The notes: generated by a model from the letters alone, not told the origin. Shown: positions 1-11,915, counted from the stretch's first letter. The stretch is DNA of 64,000 bases from Solirubrobacterales bacterium (GCA_038203635.1 JBBRDT010000001.1:22003-86002), one strand, 5' to 3'. Program-made: numbers and translations.

Positions 1-1
1 C

Positions 2-478
2 GAGGCCCTCAATCCCTCTGACCCGGCACTGCTGCGCGTGGCCGCTCCGCCGGACCCGGAACAGCTGCGCGGCAACGTCCAGAACGATCTGAATGCACTT
101 TTCCTGCTCCTCGGGGGCGTGTCGCTGCTGGTGGGCGCGCTGGGGATCGCCAACGTCACCCTCGTCTCGGTGCTGGAGCGCGTGGGCGAGATCGGGCTGC
201 GCCGGGCGCTGGGGGCAGCGCGCCGCCACATCGCCGCGCAGTTCCTGATCGAGAGCACGGTGATGGGGCTGCTGGGCGGCATCATCGGCACCAGCCTGGG
301 GATCCTGGTGGTGGTGCTCGTCGCGGCCAGCCGTACGTGGACTCCGGTGCTCGATCCGCTGATTCCTCTGGCGGCGCCGCTCGTGGGAGCGCTGATCGGA
401 CTGCTGTCCGGGACATACCCGTCGTTGCGAGCCGCGGCCATGGAGCCGGTCGAAGCGTTGCGAGCGGGCACAACTTAA
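2..478 (+). CDS. ABC transporter permease, FtsX/MacB-type, C-terminal part (5' end outside window)
   Basis: The frame is open from the window edge. The tail ...LGIANVTLVSVLERVGEIGLRRALGA..QFLIESTVMGLLGG..TYPSLRAAAMEPVEALR matches the last TM helices and closing motif of FtsX-family permeases. Confidence 0.8.
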   Translation, partial: EALNPSDPALLRVAAPPDPEQLRGNVQNDLNALFLLLGGVSLLVGALGIANVTLVSVLERVGEIGLRRALGAARRHIAAQFLIESTVMGLLGGIIGTSLGILVVVLVAASRTWTPVLDPLIPLAAPLVGALIGLLSGTYPSLRAAAMEPVEALRAGTT

Positions 479-1500: not shown

Positions 1501-2388
1501 GTGCTGCGTTACAGAGTGGCGGCCGTGTTTGCGGCCATGATCGTGATCGTCCTGCCGCTGGCGCTCGGCGCCTGCGGAGGTGACGACGAGGCCCAGGCCA
1601 AGCCGGCGGTGCACACCGACTTCAACGCCGACAGCTTTTCCGACTCGACCAACATAGACAACAGGTACTCGCCGCTCGAGCCCGGGATGCAGTTCATCTT
1701 CGAGGGCCGTTCGAACCGGGGACTCGGCCGCCTTCCGCATCAGGCGATCTTTACCGTCACGGACCTGACGAAGGAGATCAACGGTGTGCGTACGGTCGTG
1801 CTGTGGGATCGCGACGTCAACGCCGGCAAGCTGCTGGAAGGCGAGCTGGCGATGTGGGCGCAGGACGACGACGGGAACGTGTGGCTGCTGGGTGAGTATC
1901 CGGAGGAGTACGACGAGCGTGGGCGGTTCGAGCAGGCGCCAGACACGTGGCTCGCCGGCATCGATCGCTCGCAGGCGGGAATCATGATGCGGGCGGATCC
2001 CAAGGCGGGAACGTCGCGCTACCGCCAGGGACTCGCGCCGGCGATCGGTTTCGCCGACGTGGCGCGAGTCGAGCAGACCGGTCAGCGGAACTGCGTTCCC
2101 ACGGGTTGCTACAAGGACGTCGTGGTCACGAGGGAGACGAATCCCGACGAGCCGGACGACGGCTTTCAACTGAAGTACTACGCCCCGGGAGTGGGGAACA
2201 TCCGCGCCGCACCGCGAGGCGGCAAGGAGAAGGAGATCCTCGTGCTGATCAAGGCGAGGAAGCTGAGCTCGAAGCAGATGGACGAAGTGCGCCGCGAGGC
2301 GATGAAGCTCGACAAGCGCGCCTACCGTACCCGGCCGGCCGTGTGGGGCGATACCACGCCGGCCGAGCGCGCGCCCGACTCGCAGTAG
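1501..2388 (+). CDS. lipoprotein of unknown family (paralog of 27803..28606)
   Basis: GTG start after GGGAGGGA. Lipobox LALGAC|GG. Shares the D(D/K)DGNVW(L/Y)LGE, YRQ and YYAxGVG segments with the minus-strand lipoprotein at 27.8 kb. Confidence 0.7.
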   Translation: MLRYRVAAVFAAMIVIVLPLALGACGGDDEAQAKPAVHTDFNADSFSDSTNIDNRYSPLEPGMQFIFEGRSNRGLGRLPHQAIFTVTDLTKEINGVRTVVLWDRDVNAGKLLEGELAMWAQDDDGNVWLLGEYPEEYDERGRFEQAPDTWLAGIDRSQAGIMMRADPKAGTSRYRQGLAPAIGFADVARVEQTGQRNCVPTGCYKDVVVTRETNPDEPDDGFQLKYYAPGVGNIRAAPRGGKEKEILVLIKARKLSSKQMDEVRREAMKLDKRAYRTRPAVWGDTTPAERAPDSQ

Positions 2389-2541: not shown

Positions 2542-5500
2542 TTGAGGCGATGCAGGATGCAAGGCAGGGTGCTGGGGGTGGCTACGTTGGTAGCGGTGGC
2601 CGCGCTTGCCCTGCTGCCCTCCGGTGCATCGGGGGTCTATGACGCGAAGCTGAAGCGCTACCCGTACCTGACCGACCTGGTCGGGACGTCGGTGATGGTC
2701 AATTTCGGTACCGACATCTCCTCGACGAGCGCGCTCGTGAAGTACGGGCCGGTGGGGAACTGCACCGCGAACACCGTCACCGCGACGCGCACGTTCATCC
2801 TCGTCAACGGCGTCTCCGAGTATCAGTGGAAGGGTCAGATCAGCGGTCTCGCGGCGAACACGCAGTACTGCTACCGCATCTTCTTCGGCAGCGCCCAGCT
2901 CGACCTGCTCGGCACGGACGCGAGCCCGATCTTCACGACCCAGATTGCGGCCGGGTCGAACTCGCCGTTCAAGTTTGCGGTCTTCGGCGACTGGGGCAAG
3001 GTCGGCGCAACCGGTAACCCCGACCAGGCGAACGTGCTTGCGCAGATCGCAGCGAGCGGCTCGCGTTTCGCGGTCACGACCGGGGACAACGCGTACGAGA
3101 CGGGCAGCCAGAAGGACTACGGGGACCTCTACCAGACCGGTGCCAACACGAGCGCGGTCTTCGGACCGAGCTTCTGGAAGGTGGCGGGCGCGTCACTGCC
3201 ACTCTTCGCGGCACCCGGCAACCACGACTACAACAACTCCACGATCCTCACGAACTGGCCTCAGGACACGGCCGCCTCCACGTCCGGCGGCCGCTATCAG
3301 ACCGATACGTACTGCTGCCAGAACGGCACGACGTCGGCCGACTACCCCAGCACCTGGTACGCGTTCGACGCCGGACAGGCCCGCTTCTACGTGCTGAACA
3401 CTGCGTGGGACGACACCAACGCCGGCACGACCACCGCGTTCAAGAACGACTTCGACAACCACTGGGGCCCCAATTCGCCGCAGTACCAGTGGCTTGCCAA
3501 CGACCTCGCCACGCACCCGAAAGCGCTGCGATTCGCCTTCTGGCACTACCCACTCAACTCCGACAGCAGCGAGGGCGGGCCCGACACCTACCTGCAGGGT
3601 GCCAACTCGCTCGAGGGGCTGCTGAAGACCTACGACGTGACGGCCAGCTTCAACGGGCATTCCCACAACTACCAGCGCAACACCGCGCCGCCCGGGGGCA
3701 TTCCGGCGCATATCACCGGCGGCGGTGGCGCGAACCTCGAGTCCATCGGTTCCACCAACGGTTGCGGCGCGCAAGACGCGTACGGCATCGGCTGGTCCAA
3801 CACGGCCAACGTGGGCAGCAGGTGCGGCGCCGCACCGACTCCCGCCACCAAGGACCGGGTGCACCACTTCTTGCTCGTGAGCGTGAGCGGCACGTCGGTG
3901 ACGGTCACCCCCACCGACGAGCTCGGGAGGACGTTCGACCCGATCACCTACAACGCACCGGCGCTCAACGCCAACCTGTCGCTGACGAACACCGACGCAC
4001 CCGACCCGGTGCTGGTCGGCCAGCAGGTGACCTACACGCTGACGGTCGGGAACGCGGGCCCGCGGGCCGCGACCGGAACCGTCGTCACGGACACGTTGCC
4101 CGCCGGGATGATCTTCGATTCGGCGACGCCGTCGCAGGGCACCTGCTCCCAGTCGGGGGTCACCGTCACCTGTCAGCTCGGCACGGTCGGCAACGGCGCG
4201 ACCCCAACCATCCAGATCAAGGGGCGGCCGCAATCCACGGGGACCATCAACAACTCGGCCACAGTCGCCTCGAACGTCAACGACCCCACCACCAGCAACA
4301 ACAGCGCGAGCGCGTCGACCGTCGTCAACCCGGCCGCCGACCTGGCCGTGACCAAGACGGGCTCTCCCGACCCGATCGCGGTCGGCACCCAACTCACTTA
4401 CACGGTCGGCGTCAGCAATGCCGGCCCCTCGAGCGCCACCGGCATCACCCTGACCGACACGCTGCCCGCGGGGGTGACGTACAACTCGGCCACGCCCACA
4501 CAGGGCAGCTGCTCGCAGGCGTCGGGCACGGTCACGTGCTCGCTCGGGACGCTGGCAAACGCAGCCAGCGCGAGCGTCTCGATCAAGGTCACGCCTCAGG
4601 CTGAAGGCTCGATCACGAACCAGGCCAACGTGGTCTCGCTGACCGGCGACCCGAACACCGCCAACAACGGGGCGAGCGCCGTGACGACCGTGAACCCGGC
4701 CGCGGACCTGGCCCTGACCAAGACCGATTCGCCCGATCCGGTGCTGGTCGGCCAGCAGCTCACCTACACGCTCACCACTCAAAATGCCGGGCCGTCTGGC
4801 GCGGCAGCCGTGCAGCTGACCGACACGCTCCCGGCCGGTGTGACTTTCGTCTCGGCTGTCCCATCGCAGGGCACATGCTCGCAATCGGCCGGCGTTGTCA
4901 CATGCTCGCTGGGAACGATCGCGAACGCCGCCAACGCCAGCGTCTCGATCAAGGTCACGCCGCAGTCCACGGGCTCGATCACCAACCAGGCGAGCGTCAC
5001 CTCCTCGGTCACCGACCCGAATTCCGCCAACAACACCGCGAGCGCCGCGACGCTTGTGAACCCGGTCGCCGACATGGTGGTGACCAAGACCGACTCGCCC
5101 GACCCGGTGCTGGTCGGCCAACCACTCACCTACACGGTCGGCGTTCAGAATTCCGGTCCGTCGAGCGCCACCAGCGTGTCGATGACCGACACGCTGCCGG
5201 GCGGGGTGACGTTCAACTCGGCCGTTCCCTCGCAGGGCAGCTGCTCGCAGGCGGCGGGCGTTGTCACCTGCCCACTCGGAACGATCGCAAGCGGCGCCGG
5301 CGCCAGCATCCAGATCACGGTCACGCCGCAGTCCACGGGCTCGATCACCAACCAGGCGAGCGCCTCGTCGAGCGTCAGCGATCCGAACTCGGCGAACAAC
5401 ACCGCCAGCGCGGCAACGCTCGTGAACCCCGCCGCCAACCTGTCGCTGACCAAGACCGATTCGCCCGATCCGGTCCTGCAGCGCCAGGAGCTGACGTACT

Positions 5501-8500
5501 CGCTCGGCGTGAGCAACGCCGGCCCCTCGAGCGCCACCAGCGTGGTCGTGACCGACACGCTGCCCTCGGGGGTCACGTACAACTCCGCCACGCCCTCCCA
5601 GGGCAGCTGCGCCAATAGCTCAGGCACCGTCACGTGCTCGCTCGGGACCATCGCCAACGGTGCAAGCGCCACCATCCAGATCAAGATCACGCCGCCGTCC
5701 ACGGGGTCGATCACGAACTCCGCAAGTGCCACGTCCGGGGTCAGCGATCCGACCCCCGCCAACAACTCTGCAAGCGCAAGTACCCTCGTGAACCCGGTCG
5801 CCGACCTGTCGATCACCAAGTCGGACTCGCCCGACCCGGTTTCCTCCGGCCAGCAGCTGACCTACACCCTCGCGCTCCAAAACTCCGGGCCCTCGGGCGC
5901 GACCGGCGTTACCGTCACCGACACACTTCCCGGCGGCGTGACGTACAACTCCGCCACGCCATCGCAGGGCACCTGCTCACAGTCGAGCGGCACGGTCACC
6001 TGCAACCTCGGCGCCGTGGCAAACGGCGCAAATGCGAGCGTGAGCATCGTGGTGACGCCCACCGGGGGAACCACGATCACCAACCAGGCAAGCGTGTCGG
6101 CCGCCACCGCCGACCCGGCCCTTGTCAACAACGCGTCCAGCGCGTCCACCACGGTCGATCCGATCGCCGATCTGAGCCTGACCAACTCGGACGCACCGGA
6201 CCCGGTGCTGTCGGGCAACGAGCTCACCTACACGCTCGGTGTTCACAACTCGGGCCCCGCGAGCGCGCCGAGTGCGTCTCTGAGCGACACCTTCCCGGCC
6301 GGGGTGACATACGTGTCCGCCACCACCACGCAGGGCAGCTGCGCCCGCTCGGGCAACACCGTTATCTGCGCGCTCGGCACGCTCTCCAGCGGCGCCGACG
6401 TGACCGTCACGATCAAGGTCAACACCGGCGCACCGGGAACGATCACGAATGACGCCACCGTCTTGTCCACGGCCACCGACCCAAGCTCCGGCAACAACTC
6501 GGCAAGCGCCGTCACGACCGTCAAGCCGGTCGCCGACCTCGCCTTGACGAAGTCCGATGCGCCGGACCCGGTGCTAGCGGGCCAGCTTCTCACCTACACC
6601 CTCGGGGTCTCCAACGGCGGCCCGCAGGACGCGCCCGGCGTGACGGTGACCGACACCCTGCCGGCCGGGGTGACTTTCGAATCCGCCACGCCGACGCAGG
6701 GCAGCTGCACCCAGTTGGCGGGCACGGTCACCTGCGCGCTCGGCACCGTGGCCAACAGCGGCAGCGCAAGCGTCGACGTCAAGGTCCGGCCGCAGAGCGA
6801 GGGGAGCATCACGAACCAGGCGAGCGTCACCTCCGGCGCAGGGGACCTGAACCCGTCGAACGACTCGGCAAGCGCGCAGACGACTGTCGATCCCGCCGCC
6901 GACCTCGAGCTCACCAAGACCGACTCAGCCGACCCGGTGTACTCGGGCGACGAGCTCACCTACACGCTGGCGGTCCACAACGCCGGTCCGTCGGCCACGA
7001 GCGGGGTCGCGCTGAGCGACACCCTGCCCGCGGGTGCCACGTACGTGTCCTTCACCGCCAGCCAGGGCAGCTGCTTCAGATCCGGAAGCTCGGTGCTCTG
7101 CTCGCTGGGAACGCTCGCCAATCAGGCAAACGCGACCGTCACGATCAAGGTCATAGCCCAGGCCGTGGGCACGCTAACCAACACGGCCAACGTCTTCGGC
7201 ATGAACGCGGACACGGACACCGCTGACAACGCGGCATCGGCCGACACGACCGTCAACCCGTCGGCGAACCTCTCGCTCACCAAGTCCGACTCGCCCGACC
7301 CGGTGGCGGCAGGCGAGCTGCTGACCTATTCGCTTGGAGTCCAGAATGCAGGGCCGCAGGCCGCGACGGGCGTGACGGTGACCGACACGCTGCCCGCCGG
7401 AGTGCTGTTCGAGTCGGCGACAGCGTCCCAGGGCGACTGCACCGAGTCGAGCGGCACCGTGACCTGCGCGCTCGGCACAGTCGCGAACGCGGGGAGCGCA
7501 AGCGTCGAGATAAAGGTGCGCCCGCAGGAAGGCGGCCAGATCACCAATCAGGCGACCGTCGACTCCGATCTCGAAGACCAGGTGCCGGGCAACAATTCGG
7601 CAAGCGCAGTGACGACCGTGGACCCGGCCGCCGACCTCTCGCTGACGAAGACGGACTCCCCCGACCCGGTGCTGGCCGGCGAGCTGCTCACCTACACCCT
7701 CGCCGTCCACAGCGCCGGGCCCTCGAGCGCCACCGCCGTGCAGGTCACCGACAACCTGCCGGCCGGGGTCACCTTCGACTCCGCCGACCCCACCCAGGGC
7801 ACCTGCACCGAGTCGAGCGGCACCGTGACGTGCGCGCTCGGCACGCTGGCCGGCGGGGCCGACGCGGGCGTCGAGATCAAGGTTCGTCCGCAGCAGGGAG
7901 GCTCCATCACGAACGAGGCGAGCGTCAGCTCGGCCGTTCAGGATCCGACCTCCTCGAACAACTCCGCGAGCGCGGAGACGACGGTGGTTCCGGCGGCCGA
8001 CCTCTCGCTCACGAAGACAGATACTCCTGATCCGGCGCTCGAGGACGAGCAGCTCACATACTTGCTGACCGTCCAAAACGCCGGGCCGCAGAGCGCAACG
8101 GGCGTTGCGCTCACCGACAACCTGCCGGCCGGCGTGACATTCGACTCCGCGACCCCGTCACAGGGCACCTGCTCCGAGTCGAGCGGCACGGTCACGTGCG
8201 CGCTCGGGACGATCGCCGACGAGGGCAGCGCGAGCGTCGAGATCAAGGTCACTCCACCGGACCCGGCGACGCTCACCAACGAGGCCAGCGTGAGCTCCGA
8301 CCTGGCGGATCCGGATTCGGCCGACACCACCGCAAGCGCCGAGACCACGGTGCGACCCGTCGCCGACCTCGCACTGACGAAGTCCGACGCTCCGGACCCG
8401 ATCCTGGCGGGCGAGGAGCTCACCTACACCCTGACCGTGGACAACTCAGGGCCACGCAGCGCCACCAGCGTGCAGCTCACCGACACCCTGCCCGCCACGG

Positions 8501-10821
8501 CAACGTTCGTCTCCGCCACGCCCTCACAGGGCGGCTGCTCGGAGACGGCCGGCACGGTCACCTGCGCGCTCGACACGATCGCCGACCAAGGCAGCGCGAC
8601 GGTCGAGATCAAGGTCACGCCACGCGAGGGTGAAGTGATCACGAACGACGCGACCGTTTCCTCCGACGAGGGTGACCCGACCCCCTCGAACAACTCGGAC
8701 AGCGCCGACACGACCGTGAGCCCGGCCGCCGACCTCGAGCTGACCAAGACGGACTCGCCCGACCCGATTCCGGCGGGCGGACTGCTCACCTACACACTCG
8801 CCGTCCACAACGCCGGCCCTTCGAGCGCACCCGCCGTCCAGCTTTCCGACACCCTGCCGGCCGGCGTGACCTTCGTCTCCGCTGAGCCGACGCAGGGCAC
8901 CTGCAGCCAGGCAGCGGGCATCGTGGACTGCGCGCTCGGCACCATCGCCGACCAGGCAACAGCGAACGTCGCGATCAAGGTCAGGCCGCAGGCCCCCGGC
9001 ACGATCACGAACGTCGCCAGCGTCCTCTCCCTCGCGCTCGATGCCGACACGGCTGACAACAACGCGAGCGCCGAGACGACCGTCGGTCAGGCCGCCGACC
9101 TGTCGCTGACCAAGACCGGCTCGCCGGACCCGGTGCTGCCGGGAGCGCAGCTGACCTACATGCTCACGGTGCACAACGCCGGTCCCGAGACCGCCACGGT
9201 GGTGAGCTTGACCGACACCCTGCCGGGTGGCGTGACCTTCGACTCCGCGACCCCGTCGCAGGGCACCTGCTCCGAGTCGAGCGGCACAGTCACCTGCGCG
9301 CTCGGCACACTCGCCGACGAGGGCGGCGCAAGCGTCGAGATCGACGTCACCCCACAGAGCCCCGGGACGATCACGAACCAGGCGAGCGTGTCGTCGGAGG
9401 TGGACGATCCCGAGCCCGCCGACAACTCCGCAAGCGCGGTGACCACGGTGTCTCCGGTCGCAGACCTCTCGGTCTCGAAGTCCGATGCGCCCGACCCGAT
9501 CCTGGTCGAGGAGCTATTGACCTACTCCCTGTCGGTTGAGAACTCCGGGCCGTCCAGCGCCACCGGCACGAGCTTGACCGACACCCTGCCGGCCGGCGTG
9601 ACCTTCGAGTCGGCCACGTCGACGCAGGGCACCTGCTCGGAGTCGAGCGGCACGGTCACCTGCGCGCTCGGCTCTCTCGCCAACGGCGCAATTGTGGATG
9701 TCGAGATCAAGGTGAGGCCGCAGACAGCCGGCGACATCACCAACCAGGCGGACGTGACCTCGGACGAGCATGACCCGGCTTCGGGGAACAACTCCGCCAG
9801 CGCCACGACGACCGTGAACAGGATCGCCAACCTTTCGCTCACCAAGTCCGACTCGCCCGACCCGGCGGTGGTGAACGAGCAGGTCACGTACACGCTCTCG
9901 GTCCAGAACTCCGGTCCCTCGAACGCCACCGGCGTGAGCCTCACGGACACCTTGCCGGGTGGCGTCACGTTCGAGTCGGCCACCCCGACTCAGGGAAGCT
10001 GCACACAGGCCGCCGGCACCGTCAGCTGCGCCCTCGGCACCATCGCGAACGGCGCGGACGCGACCGTGACGGTCCGCATCAGGCCACAGAGCGCGGGCTC
10101 GATCACCAACAACGCACAAGTGAGCTCCGGCGCCACGGACCCGAGTACGGGTGACAACACTGCGAGCGCACAGACGACGGTCAACCCGGCCATCGGGTAC
10201 ACACGCCCGAAGACCGCCACGAAAGTGCGCGTTCCGCTCGTCCCGGCCTATGTGGCGTGCGCAGGGCCCAATGGCTTCCACGGTCCCCCGCTCGGCAGTG
10301 CTTCCTGCAAGCCTCCGACCAGAGTCTCGACATTCGTGACCATCGGGTCCCCGGACGCCAACGGGGCCACGGCGAATTCTTCGGGCTCGGCGCGATTCAA
10401 GGTGATGCTCAACGACCTGAGCATCACCGCAAACATCACGGACATCCGGTGCGGCAACGGGACCAGCGCCTGCGGCGCCGCCAACGCCCAGGACGGCCCC
10501 GACTACTCGGGCCAGCTCCAGCTCGCCCTGCCGCTGCGTATCACCGACAGGTTCAGCGGCTCGGCCGGCGGGGTGGCGGCGACCGTTTCGGACACGTCCT
10601 TCCCGGTGCCGATGGCCTGCTCCGAGGTCGCAAACCAAGCGATCGGCTCCACCTGCAGCGTCACCACCTCCGCCAATGCGGTGCTCCCGGGCGCGATCCA
10701 GACTGGCAGGCGCACCGTCTGGCAGATGGATCGGGTGCAGGTGTTCGACGGAGGCGCGGACGGCGTCGCCTCGACCGCCGGGAACGGGCTCTTCGCAGTG
10801 CAGGGCGTGTTCGTGCCGTAG
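2542..10821 (+). CDS. giant secreted protein: purple-acid-phosphatase-type metallophosphoesterase + 17 DUF11 repeats + ~205-aa Cys-containing C-terminal domain
   Basis: Signal peptide MQGRVLGVATLVAVAALALLPSGASG. PAP motif set GDWG / GDNAY / GNHDY / FWHYP / GHSHNY. Then 17 tandem ~121-aa repeats of the DUF11 type (ADLxLTKTDSPDPV..LTYTLxVxNxGPSxA..TDTLPxGVTFxSAxPxQGxC..VTCxLGT..ITNxAxV..NNxASAxTTVxP). Start is either TTG 2542 or ATG 2557 (GAGG 9 nt upstream). Confidence 0.9.
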   Translation: MRRCRMQGRVLGVATLVAVAALALLPSGASGVYDAKLKRYPYLTDLVGTSVMVNFGTDISSTSALVKYGPVGNCTANTVTATRTFILVNGVSEYQWKGQISGLAANTQYCYRIFFGSAQLDLLGTDASPIFTTQIAAGSNSPFKFAVFGDWGKVGATGNPDQANVLAQIAASGSRFAVTTGDNAYETGSQKDYGDLYQTGANTSAVFGPSFWKVAGASLPLFAAPGNHDYNNSTILTNWPQDTAASTSGGRYQTDTYCCQNGTTSADYPSTWYAFDAGQARFYVLNTAWDDTNAGTTTAFKNDFDNHWGPNSPQYQWLANDLATHPKALRFAFWHYPLNSDSSEGGPDTYLQGANSLEGLLKTYDVTASFNGHSHNYQRNTAPPGGIPAHITGGGGANLESIGSTNGCGAQDAYGIGWSNTANVGSRCGAAPTPATKDRVHHFLLVSVSGTSVTVTPTDELGRTFDPITYNAPALNANLSLTNTDAPDPVLVGQQVTYTLTVGNAGPRAATGTVVTDTLPAGMIFDSATPSQGTCSQSGVTVTCQLGTVGNGATPTIQIKGRPQSTGTINNSATVASNVNDPTTSNNSASASTVVNPAADLAVTKTGSPDPIAVGTQLTYTVGVSNAGPSSATGITLTDTLPAGVTYNSATPTQGSCSQASGTVTCSLGTLANAASASVSIKVTPQAEGSITNQANVVSLTGDPNTANNGASAVTTVNPAADLALTKTDSPDPVLVGQQLTYTLTTQNAGPSGAAAVQLTDTLPAGVTFVSAVPSQGTCSQSAGVVTCSLGTIANAANASVSIKVTPQSTGSITNQASVTSSVTDPNSANNTASAATLVNPVADMVVTKTDSPDPVLVGQPLTYTVGVQNSGPSSATSVSMTDTLPGGVTFNSAVPSQGSCSQAAGVVTCPLGTIASGAGASIQITVTPQSTGSITNQASASSSVSDPNSANNTASAATLVNPAANLSLTKTDSPDPVLQRQELTYSLGVSNAGPSSATSVVVTDTLPSGVTYNSATPSQGSCANSSGTVTCSLGTIANGASATIQIKITPPSTGSITNSASATSGVSDPTPANNSASASTLVNPVADLSITKSDSPDPVSSGQQLTYTLALQNSGPSGATGVTVTDTLPGGVTYNSATPSQGTCSQSSGTVTCNLGAVANGANASVSIVVTPTGGTTITNQASVSAATADPALVNNASSASTTVDPIADLSLTNSDAPDPVLSGNELTYTLGVHNSGPASAPSASLSDTFPAGVTYVSATTTQGSCARSGNTVICALGTLSSGADVTVTIKVNTGAPGTITNDATVLSTATDPSSGNNSASAVTTVKPVADLALTKSDAPDPVLAGQLLTYTLGVSNGGPQDAPGVTVTDTLPAGVTFESATPTQGSCTQLAGTVTCALGTVANSGSASVDVKVRPQSEGSITNQASVTSGAGDLNPSNDSASAQTTVDPAADLELTKTDSADPVYSGDELTYTLAVHNAGPSATSGVALSDTLPAGATYVSFTASQGSCFRSGSSVLCSLGTLANQANATVTIKVIAQAVGTLTNTANVFGMNADTDTADNAASADTTVNPSANLSLTKSDSPDPVAAGELLTYSLGVQNAGPQAATGVTVTDTLPAGVLFESATASQGDCTESSGTVTCALGTVANAGSASVEIKVRPQEGGQITNQATVDSDLEDQVPGNNSASAVTTVDPAADLSLTKTDSPDPVLAGELLTYTLAVHSAGPSSATAVQVTDNLPAGVTFDSADPTQGTCTESSGTVTCALGTLAGGADAGVEIKVRPQQGGSITNEASVSSAVQDPTSSNNSASAETTVVPAADLSLTKTDTPDPALEDEQLTYLLTVQNAGPQSATGVALTDNLPAGVTFDSATPSQGTCSESSGTVTCALGTIADEGSASVEIKVTPPDPATLTNEASVSSDLADPDSADTTASAETTVRPVADLALTKSDAPDPILAGEELTYTLTVDNSGPRSATSVQLTDTLPATATFVSATPSQGGCSETAGTVTCALDTIADQGSATVEIKVTPREGEVITNDATVSSDEGDPTPSNNSDSADTTVSPAADLELTKTDSPDPIPAGGLLTYTLAVHNAGPSSAPAVQLSDTLPAGVTFVSAEPTQGTCSQAAGIVDCALGTIADQATANVAIKVRPQAPGTITNVASVLSLALDADTADNNASAETTVGQAADLSLTKTGSPDPVLPGAQLTYMLTVHNAGPETATVVSLTDTLPGGVTFDSATPSQGTCSESSGTVTCALGTLADEGGASVEIDVTPQSPGTITNQASVSSEVDDPEPADNSASAVTTVSPVADLSVSKSDAPDPILVEELLTYSLSVENSGPSSATGTSLTDTLPAGVTFESATSTQGTCSESSGTVTCALGSLANGAIVDVEIKVRPQTAGDITNQADVTSDEHDPASGNNSASATTTVNRIANLSLTKSDSPDPAVVNEQVTYTLSVQNSGPSNATGVSLTDTLPGGVTFESATPTQGSCTQAAGTVSCALGTIANGADATVTVRIRPQSAGSITNNAQVSSGATDPSTGDNTASAQTTVNPAIGYTRPKTATKVRVPLVPAYVACAGPNGFHGPPLGSASCKPPTRVSTFVTIGSPDANGATANSSGSARFKVMLNDLSITANITDIRCGNGTSACGAANAQDGPDYSGQLQLALPLRITDRFSGSAGGVAATVSDTSFPVPMACSEVANQAIGSTCSVTTSANAVLPGAIQTGRRTVWQMDRVQVFDGGADGVASTAGNGLFAVQGVFVP
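3961..10189 (+). repeat. coding tandem array, 17 units of ~363-366 nt (DUF11 repeats)
   Basis: The ADL(S/A/E)LTK(T/S)D(S/A)PDP repeat-unit start motif recurs 17 times in the translation. Many units share long identical DNA strings such as tcgcccgacccggtgctggtcggccagcag. Confidence 0.9.
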
Positions 10822-10834
10822 ACCGGTAACGGCC

Positions 10835-10848
10835 GGAACGGCCGTTCC
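10835..10848 (+). terminator. GC-rich perfect palindrome 14 nt after the giant gene stop (possible terminator hairpin, no U-tract)
   Basis: ggaacgg|ccgttcc. There is no T-run, so this is weak. Confidence 0.2.
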
Positions 10849-10874
10849 CTCCGGGTGGCCACAGTGGTGCTAGG

Positions 10875-11915
10875 TTGGCACCGACCCGAGGGGGAAGGTG
10901 CGGAGCCGCACGTCGCACCGTGTCGATCGACGACTGGTCACCCGACGGAGCCAAGGTCGCCTTTTACGACACCTGCACGGTGGAGGGCACCTGCTACAGC
11001 GGGATCTCGACACAACCCGCTGACGGATCGTCCCCTCCCACGAAGCTCGAAGACGGCTACGGCACGCATCCGCATTGGTCCCCGGACGGCAAGAAGATCG
11101 TGTTTCGGAGCCCTCGCGAAAACGGCCCCTGCTGCGGCCGCCCCAACTTCCTTTACACCATCAACGCGGACGGAACAGGCCTGTTTCGGGTCACCACCCA
11201 CAACACGGTCGAGTCCTCCTGGCAGCCCATCCCGATCAACTCCTACCCCCGCCCCAAGAGCGCGACACCGTTCGACGTATCGCTGGTGCCCGCCTACACC
11301 CAGTGCACGGCGCCCAACCGCACGCATGGCCCGTCGCTCGGCTTCGGCTCCTGCAACCCGCCCACGACGGCCTCCGACGAGCTCACGCTCGGTGCCCCCG
11401 ACGTAAACGGCAAGCCCGTGCGCGCCACGGGCCTCGTGCAATACGCCGCGCTGGCCGGCGACGTGCGGATCACGGTGGCGCTCAAAGACGTCTACGACCA
11501 GCAGCCGCTGGGCGACTACAGCGGTGAGCTGCGCGTCCGCACCGGACTGCGGATCACCGACAAGCTGAACACACCGCACCCGGGCGGCCCGGGCGCGGCG
11601 ACCGTGTCCGACACCACACTCGGGGCGACCGTGACCTGCACCGTCACCGCCGATCCCGACACAGGTGCGGCGTGCAACCTGCTCACGAGCGCCAACACGC
11701 TCGTCCCCGGCACCGTCACCGCGGGCAAGCGCTCGGTATGGGGGCTGGGCCAGGTGCAGGTGGACGACGGCGGCGCCGACGGGGATGCCTACACGCCGGG
11801 CGACAACACCCTGTCATGGTGCAGGGCGTATTCGTACCGTAGTCGCGTAGACGGCTGTTCTAGTCAGGCGGCCGCGCGGACCGTCGACACTCTTTGTAGA
11901 GAGAGTGATATGTAG
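10875..11915 (+). CDS. PD40/TolB-like repeat fragment fused to the same C-terminal domain as the giant protein; probable 3' frameshift, no signal peptide
   Basis: PD40 signatures DDWSPDGAKVAF, HPHWSPDGKKIVF, YTINADGTGLFRVT. Residues from YPRPKSATPFDVSLVPAY onward align with YTRPKTATKVRVPLVPAY... of the upstream protein. Start is TTG 10875 or GTG 10920. A paralog-predicted stop lies at 11840-11842 in the +1 frame. Confidence 0.6.
   Translation: MAPTRGGRCGAARRTVSIDDWSPDGAKVAFYDTCTVEGTCYSGISTQPADGSSPPTKLEDGYGTHPHWSPDGKKIVFRSPRENGPCCGRPNFLYTINADGTGLFRVTTHNTVESSWQPIPINSYPRPKSATPFDVSLVPAYTQCTAPNRTHGPSLGFGSCNPPTTASDELTLGAPDVNGKPVRATGLVQYAALAGDVRITVALKDVYDQQPLGDYSGELRVRTGLRITDKLNTPHPGGPGAATVSDTTLGATVTCTVTADPDTGAACNLLTSANTLVPGTVTAGKRSVWGLGQVQVDDGGADGDAYTPGDNTLSWCRAYSYRSRVDGCSSQAAARTVDTLCRESDM

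Follow-up and report, generated by a model that had tools for sequence, protein, structure and literature searches.

A previously uncatalogued, strictly C-terminal domain of exported Solirubrobacterales proteins and its possible role in cell-envelope retention

What is the function of a domain that recurs, in two adjacent genes, at the very end of otherwise unrelated proteins? The question is raised by a 64,000-nucleotide stretch from a Solirubrobacterales bacterium (GCA_038203635.1, JBBRDT010000001.1:22003-86002; the whole stretch is called the window below), in which a giant exoprotein built of DUF11 repeats is followed by a gene whose product carries the same C-terminal region. A first-pass annotation, made from the sequence alone, had noticed this region of about 205 residues, could assign it to no family, and proposed that it was a sorting, anchoring or secretion tag comparable in logic to type IX secretion system C-terminal domains (T9SS CTDs) or PEP-CTERM. 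The domain is a new, previously uncatalogued family of the Solirubrobacterales (Actinomycetota, Thermoleophilia), and by function we group it with the known C-terminal modules for surface retention or sorting. Anchoring or binding fits its sequence features better than sorting or secretion. Our tentative reading is that the domain retains proteins at the cell envelope by non-covalent and probably Ca2+-dependent binding, in analogy with the S-layer homology (SLH) and CWB2 modules.

The shared domain was found where the annotation had put it. The two copies (Table 1) were aligned by BLASTP over 202 columns with 41% identity and 57% positives (E 3e-47; residues 124-314 of the second open reading frame (ORF)), and in the giant protein the domain makes up the last ~205 residues. 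Each copy used as a tblastn query recovers just these two from the window, and there is no third. Outside the window, a word-indexed search returned 464 homologues of the domain, and a HMMER profile search, exhaustive over 1.84 billion cluster representatives, gave 3160 clusters (50% identity) at E <= 1e-3 and 1534 at E <= 1e-30. None of the 120 homologues listed has a Pfam annotation over the domain, their source names being 'hypothetical protein' or that of a passenger domain. When one genome per GTDB species was scanned, 227 stretches were confirmed. The hosts of the best 80 of these are almost all uncultured Solirubrobacterales metagenome-assembled genomes (MAGs); the few other hosts, on contigs of 1.8-3.6 kb in other bins, are taken as binning noise. 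Copies are numerous within single MAGs, at least 17, 14, 13, 12, 11, 10 and 10, these being lower bounds from the returned loci only, and they often lie in tandem.

The position of the domain is exact. In 79 loci there are 106 complete, uninterrupted plus-strand copies, and in 105 of them the stop codon directly follows the last residue of the domain; the sole exception, in locus L054, has a frameshifted tail. Of 270 domain occurrences in 270 retrieved proteins, 269 run to the final residue or the one before it, or else are plainly truncated or frameshifted. The only internal copy, in protein P0265, lies in a fusion of two tandem family genes, and the first copy there has lost the F-V-P (...LFEQQGV|RVGDG...). 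The conserved terminal peptide that the first-pass annotation described is thus a property of the family, with the consensus L-F-x-x-Q-G-[VIL]-F-[VI]-P-COOH; in 150 cluster representatives F(-9) is present in 146, G(-5) in 149, F(-3) in 144 and P(-1) in 144. Ordinary terminal domains usually have ragged tails, and so exact an end is unusual for one of them. Nothing relevant to the terminal motif, or to surface anchoring in Thermoleophilia, was found in the searchable literature.

The proteins that end in this way are varied, and they are exported. The region N-terminal to the domain ranges from 28 to more than 1970 residues. Passenger domains were scanned in 78 genomic proteins and 91 metagenome-representative proteins. 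In the genomic set the passengers were glucose/sorbosone dehydrogenase (GSDH, 14), PD40 (10), Peptidase_S15 and Peptidase_S9 (7 each), DUF11, penicillin amidase, CBM96 and PKD (6 each), SpaA-like (4) and FG-GAP (3). The metagenome representatives had, among others, propellers of the PD40/TolB-like and DPPIV types, with PD40 in 32, DPPIV_N in 20, FG-GAP in 10, SGL in 5, NHL in 4, Vgb lyase in 3 and a multicopper oxidase in one. Further fusion partners were plastocyanin-like cupredoxins, a PLC/acid-phosphatase domain and an amidase-like fragment; no glycoside hydrolase or polysaccharide lyase was among the passenger families listed. A signal-peptide-like N-terminus was found in 158 of the 200 homologues that start with Met, about 17 of the 158 being Tat-like, and the remaining Met-starting homologues are mostly fragments in which an internal Met was called as the start. 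The proposal that the domain sits terminally on many unrelated exoproteins was therefore borne out. The annotation had named two outcomes that would count against it, a known family that is not restricted to C-termini and a lack of further terminal copies, and neither was observed.

Not every copy has a passenger. In 26 of the 110 genomic copies the protein is stand-alone, consisting only of a signal peptide and the domain, as in MTIKRKMVLPLALAVGALGLMAVSQLASA|SHVRPKGATP... Such proteins, of about 242 residues, are abundant; they form the best-conserved subgroup, often occur in tandem, and dominate the metagenome matches. Since they exist, the domain should have an activity of its own.

Conservation was followed in alignments of 40, 107 (the genomic copies) and 150 sequences. 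In the 107-sequence alignment 14 columns are invariant (C22, H29, C38, T49, D83, Y104, G106, C142, G151, C154, R173, D185, G187 and P208) and about 34 are nearly so, including R4, P5, D54, N56, R85, D103, R115, D118, D189 and F206. The mean column identity is 49%, and the conserved residues are spread across the whole domain. Two cysteine pairs, C22/C38 and C142/C154, occur throughout the family. A third pair, C86/C93, lies in a variable loop that is present in copy 1 and missing from copy 2 and from the cupredoxin fusions, so that copy 1 would probably contain the three disulfides C22/C38, C86/C93 and C142/C154. The invariant acidic residues in the SPDANG and DGGxDG loops suggest Ca2+ sites. 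The structure prediction that the first-pass annotation had recommended gave a confident all-beta sandwich, in which the N-terminal loop region is long and conserved; the AlphaFold2 predicted local distance difference test score (pLDDT) was 81.7 with 40 sequences and 90.2 with 150, the latter with a predicted template-modelling score of 0.87.

The domain matched no known family, in agreement with the annotation. Pfam-A (2025 copy) and NCBIfam 20.0 gave no match at E <= 1 for the window domain and no recurrent family for eight homologues, nor was any recurrent family found for 107 domain-only family members at E values up to 10. Sequence-profile searches of the PDB with two alignments gave no match. 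Foldseek searches of the PDB (two models) and of BFVD gave nothing at E < 0.01, and query-normalised template-modelling (TM) scores did not exceed 0.31, with a root-mean-square deviation above 9 Å. The obligatory free terminal proline and the absence of a Foldseek structural neighbour are the unusual features of the family. Individual leads were pursued and rejected. Matches to carbohydrate-binding module (CBM) family 9 (Foldseek probability ~0.5, E 0.03-0.05, TM 0.25-0.27) appeared with the weaker model only and were gone with the better one. A relation to Cu/Zn superoxide dismutase (SOD) had an hhalign probability of 0.1% against SOD1, and the domain lacks the metal ligands of SOD. An N-terminal histidine brace of the lytic polysaccharide monooxygenase type was considered for the stand-alone proteins, in which maturation is predicted to leave T/S-H- at the N-terminus; in the fused copies the H is replaced by Y.

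The many copies within a genome are not recent. For 80 of 106 genomic copies the nearest relative sits in another genome, and for 96 it shares the architecture class, from which it follows that the paralogues are old, vertically inherited and not homogenised. In the window, copy 1 is nearest to the DUF11-linked copies L001 and L002 (62-64% identity), and copy 2 to PD40-linked copies. A recent duplication of the two, which are only 41% identical, was rejected because each is nearer to copies of the same architecture in other genomes. The window's own proteins are absent from the collections searched, where their best match is 62-69% identical; with a GC content of 68%, the window probably derives from a relative of these hosts. 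Identity is about 50% among all copies and averages 63% among the stand-alone ones. This indicates strong purifying selection on the domain, as expected for one shared partner, and ~50% identity together with invariant polar residues across old paralogues fits such a conserved partner.

These features can be brought together in the retention model. The passenger would be exported via Sec or Tat and the C-terminal domain would fold outside the membrane, with two or three disulfides, and probably Ca2+, as stabilisers. An invariant polar set (N26, H29, D54, D83, R85, D103, Y104, R115, D118, R173 and D185-G-G-x-D-G) would then bind a conserved wall or envelope component non-covalently. As a result, periplasm-type enzymes, electron carriers and adhesin-like stalk proteins would remain attached to a cell that lacks an outer membrane; in the giant protein, a phosphoesterase head would be carried on a stalk of 17 DUF11 repeats with the domain as its foot, or anchor. 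The free carboxylate of the terminal proline is presumed to be part of the fold or of the binding site, since the chain never continues past it.

The strict terminal position, the many paralogues per genome and the diversity of exported passengers argue for retention. So does the nature of the passengers, since cupredoxins and soluble dehydrogenases in a host that has no outer membrane would need to be held near the membrane. Sets of many paralogues are typical of SLH, CWB2 and LPXTG surface proteins. Gram-positive DUF11 and SpaA-like repeat proteins normally terminate in LPXTG anchors, and it is the usual LPXTG position that the domain takes in the DUF11 and SpaA-like repeat proteins studied here; a regular-expression scan found no LPXTG-type tail in the window or in 2518 ORFs of related loci. 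Several points weigh against the model. We infer that the domain binds a ligand, with help from Ca2+, and that it thereby anchors proteins, and the roles given to Ca2+ and to the terminal carboxylate are guesses. No likeness in sequence or structure to known wall-binding modules or lectins was found in Pfam, NCBIfam, the PDB or by Foldseek. SLH, LysM and CWB2 modules are not confined to the extreme C-terminus, and an absolute terminal constraint fits a recognised terminus, ie sorting, at least as well. A conserved neighbouring gene for ligand synthesis was not established among the related loci. An all-against-all search of neighbouring genes in the 79 loci brought up no processing enzyme, its output being swamped by opposite-strand high-GC artefacts and by synteny between related MAGs, and the three neighbourhoods with precomputed Pfam annotation have no family in common.

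How far the domain resembles known systems depends on the feature compared. SLH (PF00395; Bacillus, Clostridia) and CWB2 (PF04122; the Cwp family of C. difficile) are alike in placing one shared module on unrelated exported enzymes and adhesins of one genome, as seen here with at least 17 copies in one MAG. Their modules have ~170-270 residues and occur in ~20-30 proteins per genome, some of which are little more than the module. They differ in being built of three repeats and in being free to lie at either terminus, where the present domain is a single beta-sandwich at the extreme C-terminus with an invariant terminal proline; hidden Markov models (HMMs) for SLH, CWB2, LysM, GW/SH3 and choline-binding modules did not match the domain, and Foldseek gave no fold relation. 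T9SS CTDs (Por_Secre_tail, TIGR04183) are likewise folded terminal beta-sandwiches on diverse signal-peptide cargo with tens of copies per genome. However, they are ~70-100 residues long, belong to diderm Bacteroidota with PorU/PorV, are cleaved, and never stand alone, whereas the present domain has 208 residues, matches no HMM for them, is stand-alone in about a quarter of copies, and has genome matches almost all in Solirubrobacterales rather than in Bacteroidota-type diderms. The LPXTG/sortase and PEP-CTERM/exosortase signals share the C-terminal position; they consist of a short motif, a transmembrane helix and a basic tail within ~30-40 residues, unlike the tail ...NGLFAVQGVFVP of the domain, which has no hydrophobic helix and ends in ...QGVFVP. 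Thus the domain lacks what defines T9SS CTDs, tripartite signals, wall modules, CBMs and PPC domains, and shares the logic of the first three. The tag that had been proposed survives in part: the domain is terminal on many cargoes, and of the functions offered anchoring fits better, but a disulfide-containing sandwich of 208 residues with neither a transmembrane segment nor a short sorting motif gives no support to a tag in the T9SS CTD or PEP-CTERM sense.

The main rival is a dedicated sorting or attachment pathway, which the strict terminal position favours. An enzyme would read the folded domain together with ...QG[VIL]F[VI]P-COOH and either remove the domain or employ it to join the passenger covalently to the envelope, by the logic of T9SS CTD-PorU or of sortase. 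The end that is never extended, the diverse and uniformly exported passengers in tens of copies per genome, and the loss of F-V-P from the sole internal copy are all consistent with this. It is nevertheless unlikely. The passenger-less copies are the best conserved and would be left unexplained by a pure export or sorting signal; conservation extends over all 208 residues instead of being concentrated in a local motif; there is no transmembrane segment or basic tail; and no recurrent neighbouring peptidase or transpeptidase was seen in the 79 loci, where the analysis was noisy, or in the three annotated neighbourhoods. Sec or Tat export suffices, besides, in Gram-positive-type Actinomycetota. 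The more specific proposal, that the domain is the recognition element of an undescribed, Thermoleophilia-specific pathway in which a dedicated enzyme or receptor reads the free G-[VIL]-F-[VI]-P-COOH, is quite unlikely. If true, that pathway would be the Gram-positive equivalent of sorting by T9SS CTDs and would rely on a fold absent from the PDB, its partner would couple or dock dozens of exported proteins, and the stand-alone paralogues could be a matrix or competitors. In a model of self-assembly, the stand-alone paralogues would build an S-layer-like lattice or sheath in which the fused paralogues co-assemble and are displayed. Their number, tandem arrangement, conservation and dominance among the metagenome matches suit such a lattice, and the conserved N- and C-terminal segments could provide inter-subunit contacts, but no structural likeness to S-layer proteins or pilins was found by Foldseek (PDB and BFVD), and we consider the idea improbable.

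Equally doubtful is a module that binds to the surroundings, of the CBM or lectin kind, and so directs secreted enzymes towards other organisms or a polymer in the soil. The fold would be suitable, being a beta-sandwich in which numerous Asp, Asn, Arg and Tyr residues are invariant; CBM9 and Cu/Zn-SOD-like Greek-key sandwiches are all-beta, of similar size and gave weak Foldseek matches, in the case of CBM9 with the first, lower-confidence model only; and stand-alone modules are common among CBMs. Yet the CBM9 matches vanish with the better model, so that no significant likeness of fold or sequence is left, and the listed passengers are mostly peptidases, dehydrogenases, cupredoxins, phosphatases and propellers, not carbohydrate-active enzymes. 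A stalk of 17 repeats between a catalytic head and a substrate binder makes little sense, and CBMs also occur away from the exact C-terminus. A C-terminal pro-domain or intramolecular chaperone that aids export or folding and is later degraded, like PPC or phage-tailspike domains, would account for the strictly C-terminal position on secreted enzymes, many peptidases among them. Such a domain always accompanies a passenger, which the stand-alone copies contradict; the passengers differ very greatly in fold, there is no Pfam match to PPC (PF04151) or Peptidase_S74, and purifying selection acts on polar, surface-type residues. This last explanation is very hard to credit.

Table 1. Positions in the window of the two domain copies, the genes that carry them, and neighbouring genes
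Feature	Position (nt)	Strand	Basis or remark
295-aa protein, lipoprotein-type leader (LALGAC)	1501-2388	+	no Pfam match
Giant exoprotein gene, 2759 aa	2542-10821	+	ORF list, translation, Pfam
Giant protein: signal peptide	aa ~1-31	+	
Giant protein: purple-acid-phosphatase-like metallophosphoesterase	~2671-3672 (aa 44-377)	+	Pfam Metallophos, Pur_ac_phosph_N
Giant protein: 17 DUF11 repeats	~3976-10194 (aa ~479-2550)	+	Pfam
Domain copy 1, 208 aa, GYTRPKTATKVRVPLVPAY...LFAVQGVFVP	10195-10818 (residues 2552-2759)	+	stop 10819-10821
Copy 1: terminal motif LFAVQGVFVP and stop codon	10789-10821	+	
Second ORF as read, 346 aa: PD40 remnant, copy 2, 33 out-of-frame residues	10875-11915	+	translation
Second ORF: short PD40/TolB-like beta-propeller remnant	~10920-11240	+	Pfam PD40 match, aa 61-82
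Domain copy 2, in-frame portion, SYPRPKSATPFDVSLVPAY...GDNTL	11241-11813	+	
Copy 2: frameshift site, TC where homologues carry TTC (Phe)	11814-11815	+	direct sequence reading; tblastn frame switch ~11813
Copy 2: out-of-frame tail MVQGVFVP and TAG	11816-11842	+	TAG 11840-11842; tblastn match 11819-11839
Membrane-bound GGDEF + HD-GYP (HD_5) protein, 709 aa	11916-14045	+	
PMT-family protein mannosyltransferase-like membrane protein, 772 aa	15150-17468	-	
Glycosyltransferase family 2 (GT2) + GtrA/DPMS protein, 795 aa	17476-19863	-	polyprenol-phosphate-mannose synthase-like
Second giant exoprotein, 1783 aa	19996-25347	+	ends ...LRPELVVTLR
PD40/DPPIV-like propeller protein, 316 aa	25350-26300	+	no domain (tblastn)
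RTX Ca2+-binding repeat protein, 507 aa	26266-27789	+	no domain (tblastn)

Of the two window genes, the first agrees with the annotation's description. Its DUF11 repeats score 1519 bits (PF01345, TIGR01451), and its product has a signal peptide. The second gene, which begins 53 nucleotides after the first, fared differently. The annotation had taken its product for an exoprotein ending in MVQGVFVP, in frame. The nucleotides of copy 2 are ACC CTG TC ATG GTG CAG..., where homologues encode T-L-F-x-x-Q-G, so one nucleotide of the Phe codon is missing. The frame is therefore read as ...ACC CTG TCA TGG TGC..., followed by 33 unrelated residues up to the stop, and the conserved ending belongs to a separate ORF of 56 residues (11672-11842). 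In addition, there is no signal peptide, and the product aligns only to residues ~216-510 of the PD40 + domain homologues of 513-518 residues (L059, L074). For these reasons the second ORF is probably a pseudogene remnant, truncated at its 5' end by ~200 N-terminal residues and the signal peptide as well as frameshifted; the frameshift may be a sequencing error. As encoded, it is not a demonstrable exoprotein. Decay and recombination are frequent among family genes, with an internal stop in L069 (1791-2447) and frameshifts or fragments in L054 (6001-6612), L072 (10239-10875) and L076 (7631-8254, minus strand), P0006 being listed also; the condition of copy 2 is consistent with this pattern.

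The surroundings of the domain genes offered further observations. The 295-aa protein with a lipoprotein-type leader is encoded just upstream of the giant gene, and the GGDEF + HD-GYP gene starts one base past the stop codon of the second ORF (11913-11915). A GGDEF + HD protein is also encoded near a stand-alone domain gene in L082, a resemblance that is probably coincidence. The PMT-like gene lies about 3.2 kb downstream of the domain genes and adjoins the GT2 gene. Together these look like an actinobacterial protein O-mannosylation pair, and a tie to the Ser/Thr-rich giant exoprotein is speculative. Beyond them, the second giant exoprotein has a metallophosphoesterase head, FN3-like repeats and two CBM96 domains; it is without the C-terminal domain, so that the window encodes two phosphoesterase-headed stalk proteins with different C-terminal ends. 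The propeller gene and the RTX repeat gene follow it.

In at least 6-7 of the related loci, a polytopic membrane protein of ~800 residues is encoded beside one stand-alone subfamily, in divergent orientation. In L027 (2684-5059, minus strand) and L081 (6734-9157, minus strand) the two versions are 55% identical and have no Pfam match; the first loop contains ...YIKLDD..., and there is a C-terminal extracytoplasmic part of ~330 residues. The protein may be a GT-C-like glycosyltransferase, which would make it a candidate for synthesis of the ligand; alternatively, conserved synteny alone may account for the association. L081 also encodes, at 1-747, an 831-aa product with Sortase and amino-acid-permease Pfam matches, 10 kb from a stand-alone domain gene; the host organisms thus encode a sortase-like protein.

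Solirubrobacterales are among the commonest soil Actinomycetota, and their cell surface is barely known. One domain marks a large part of their exported proteome, from peptidases, sugar dehydrogenases, cupredoxins and phosphatases to giant repeat adhesins, and defining the family would annotate thousands of hypothetical proteins. Its strict free terminal proline and the lack of a PDB neighbour recommend it for structure determination. Surface-displayed enzymes of this lineage could also be predicted from the sequence of the domain, and the domain is a candidate explanation for how monoderm actinobacteria may retain periplasm-type proteins without LPXTG or lipid anchors.

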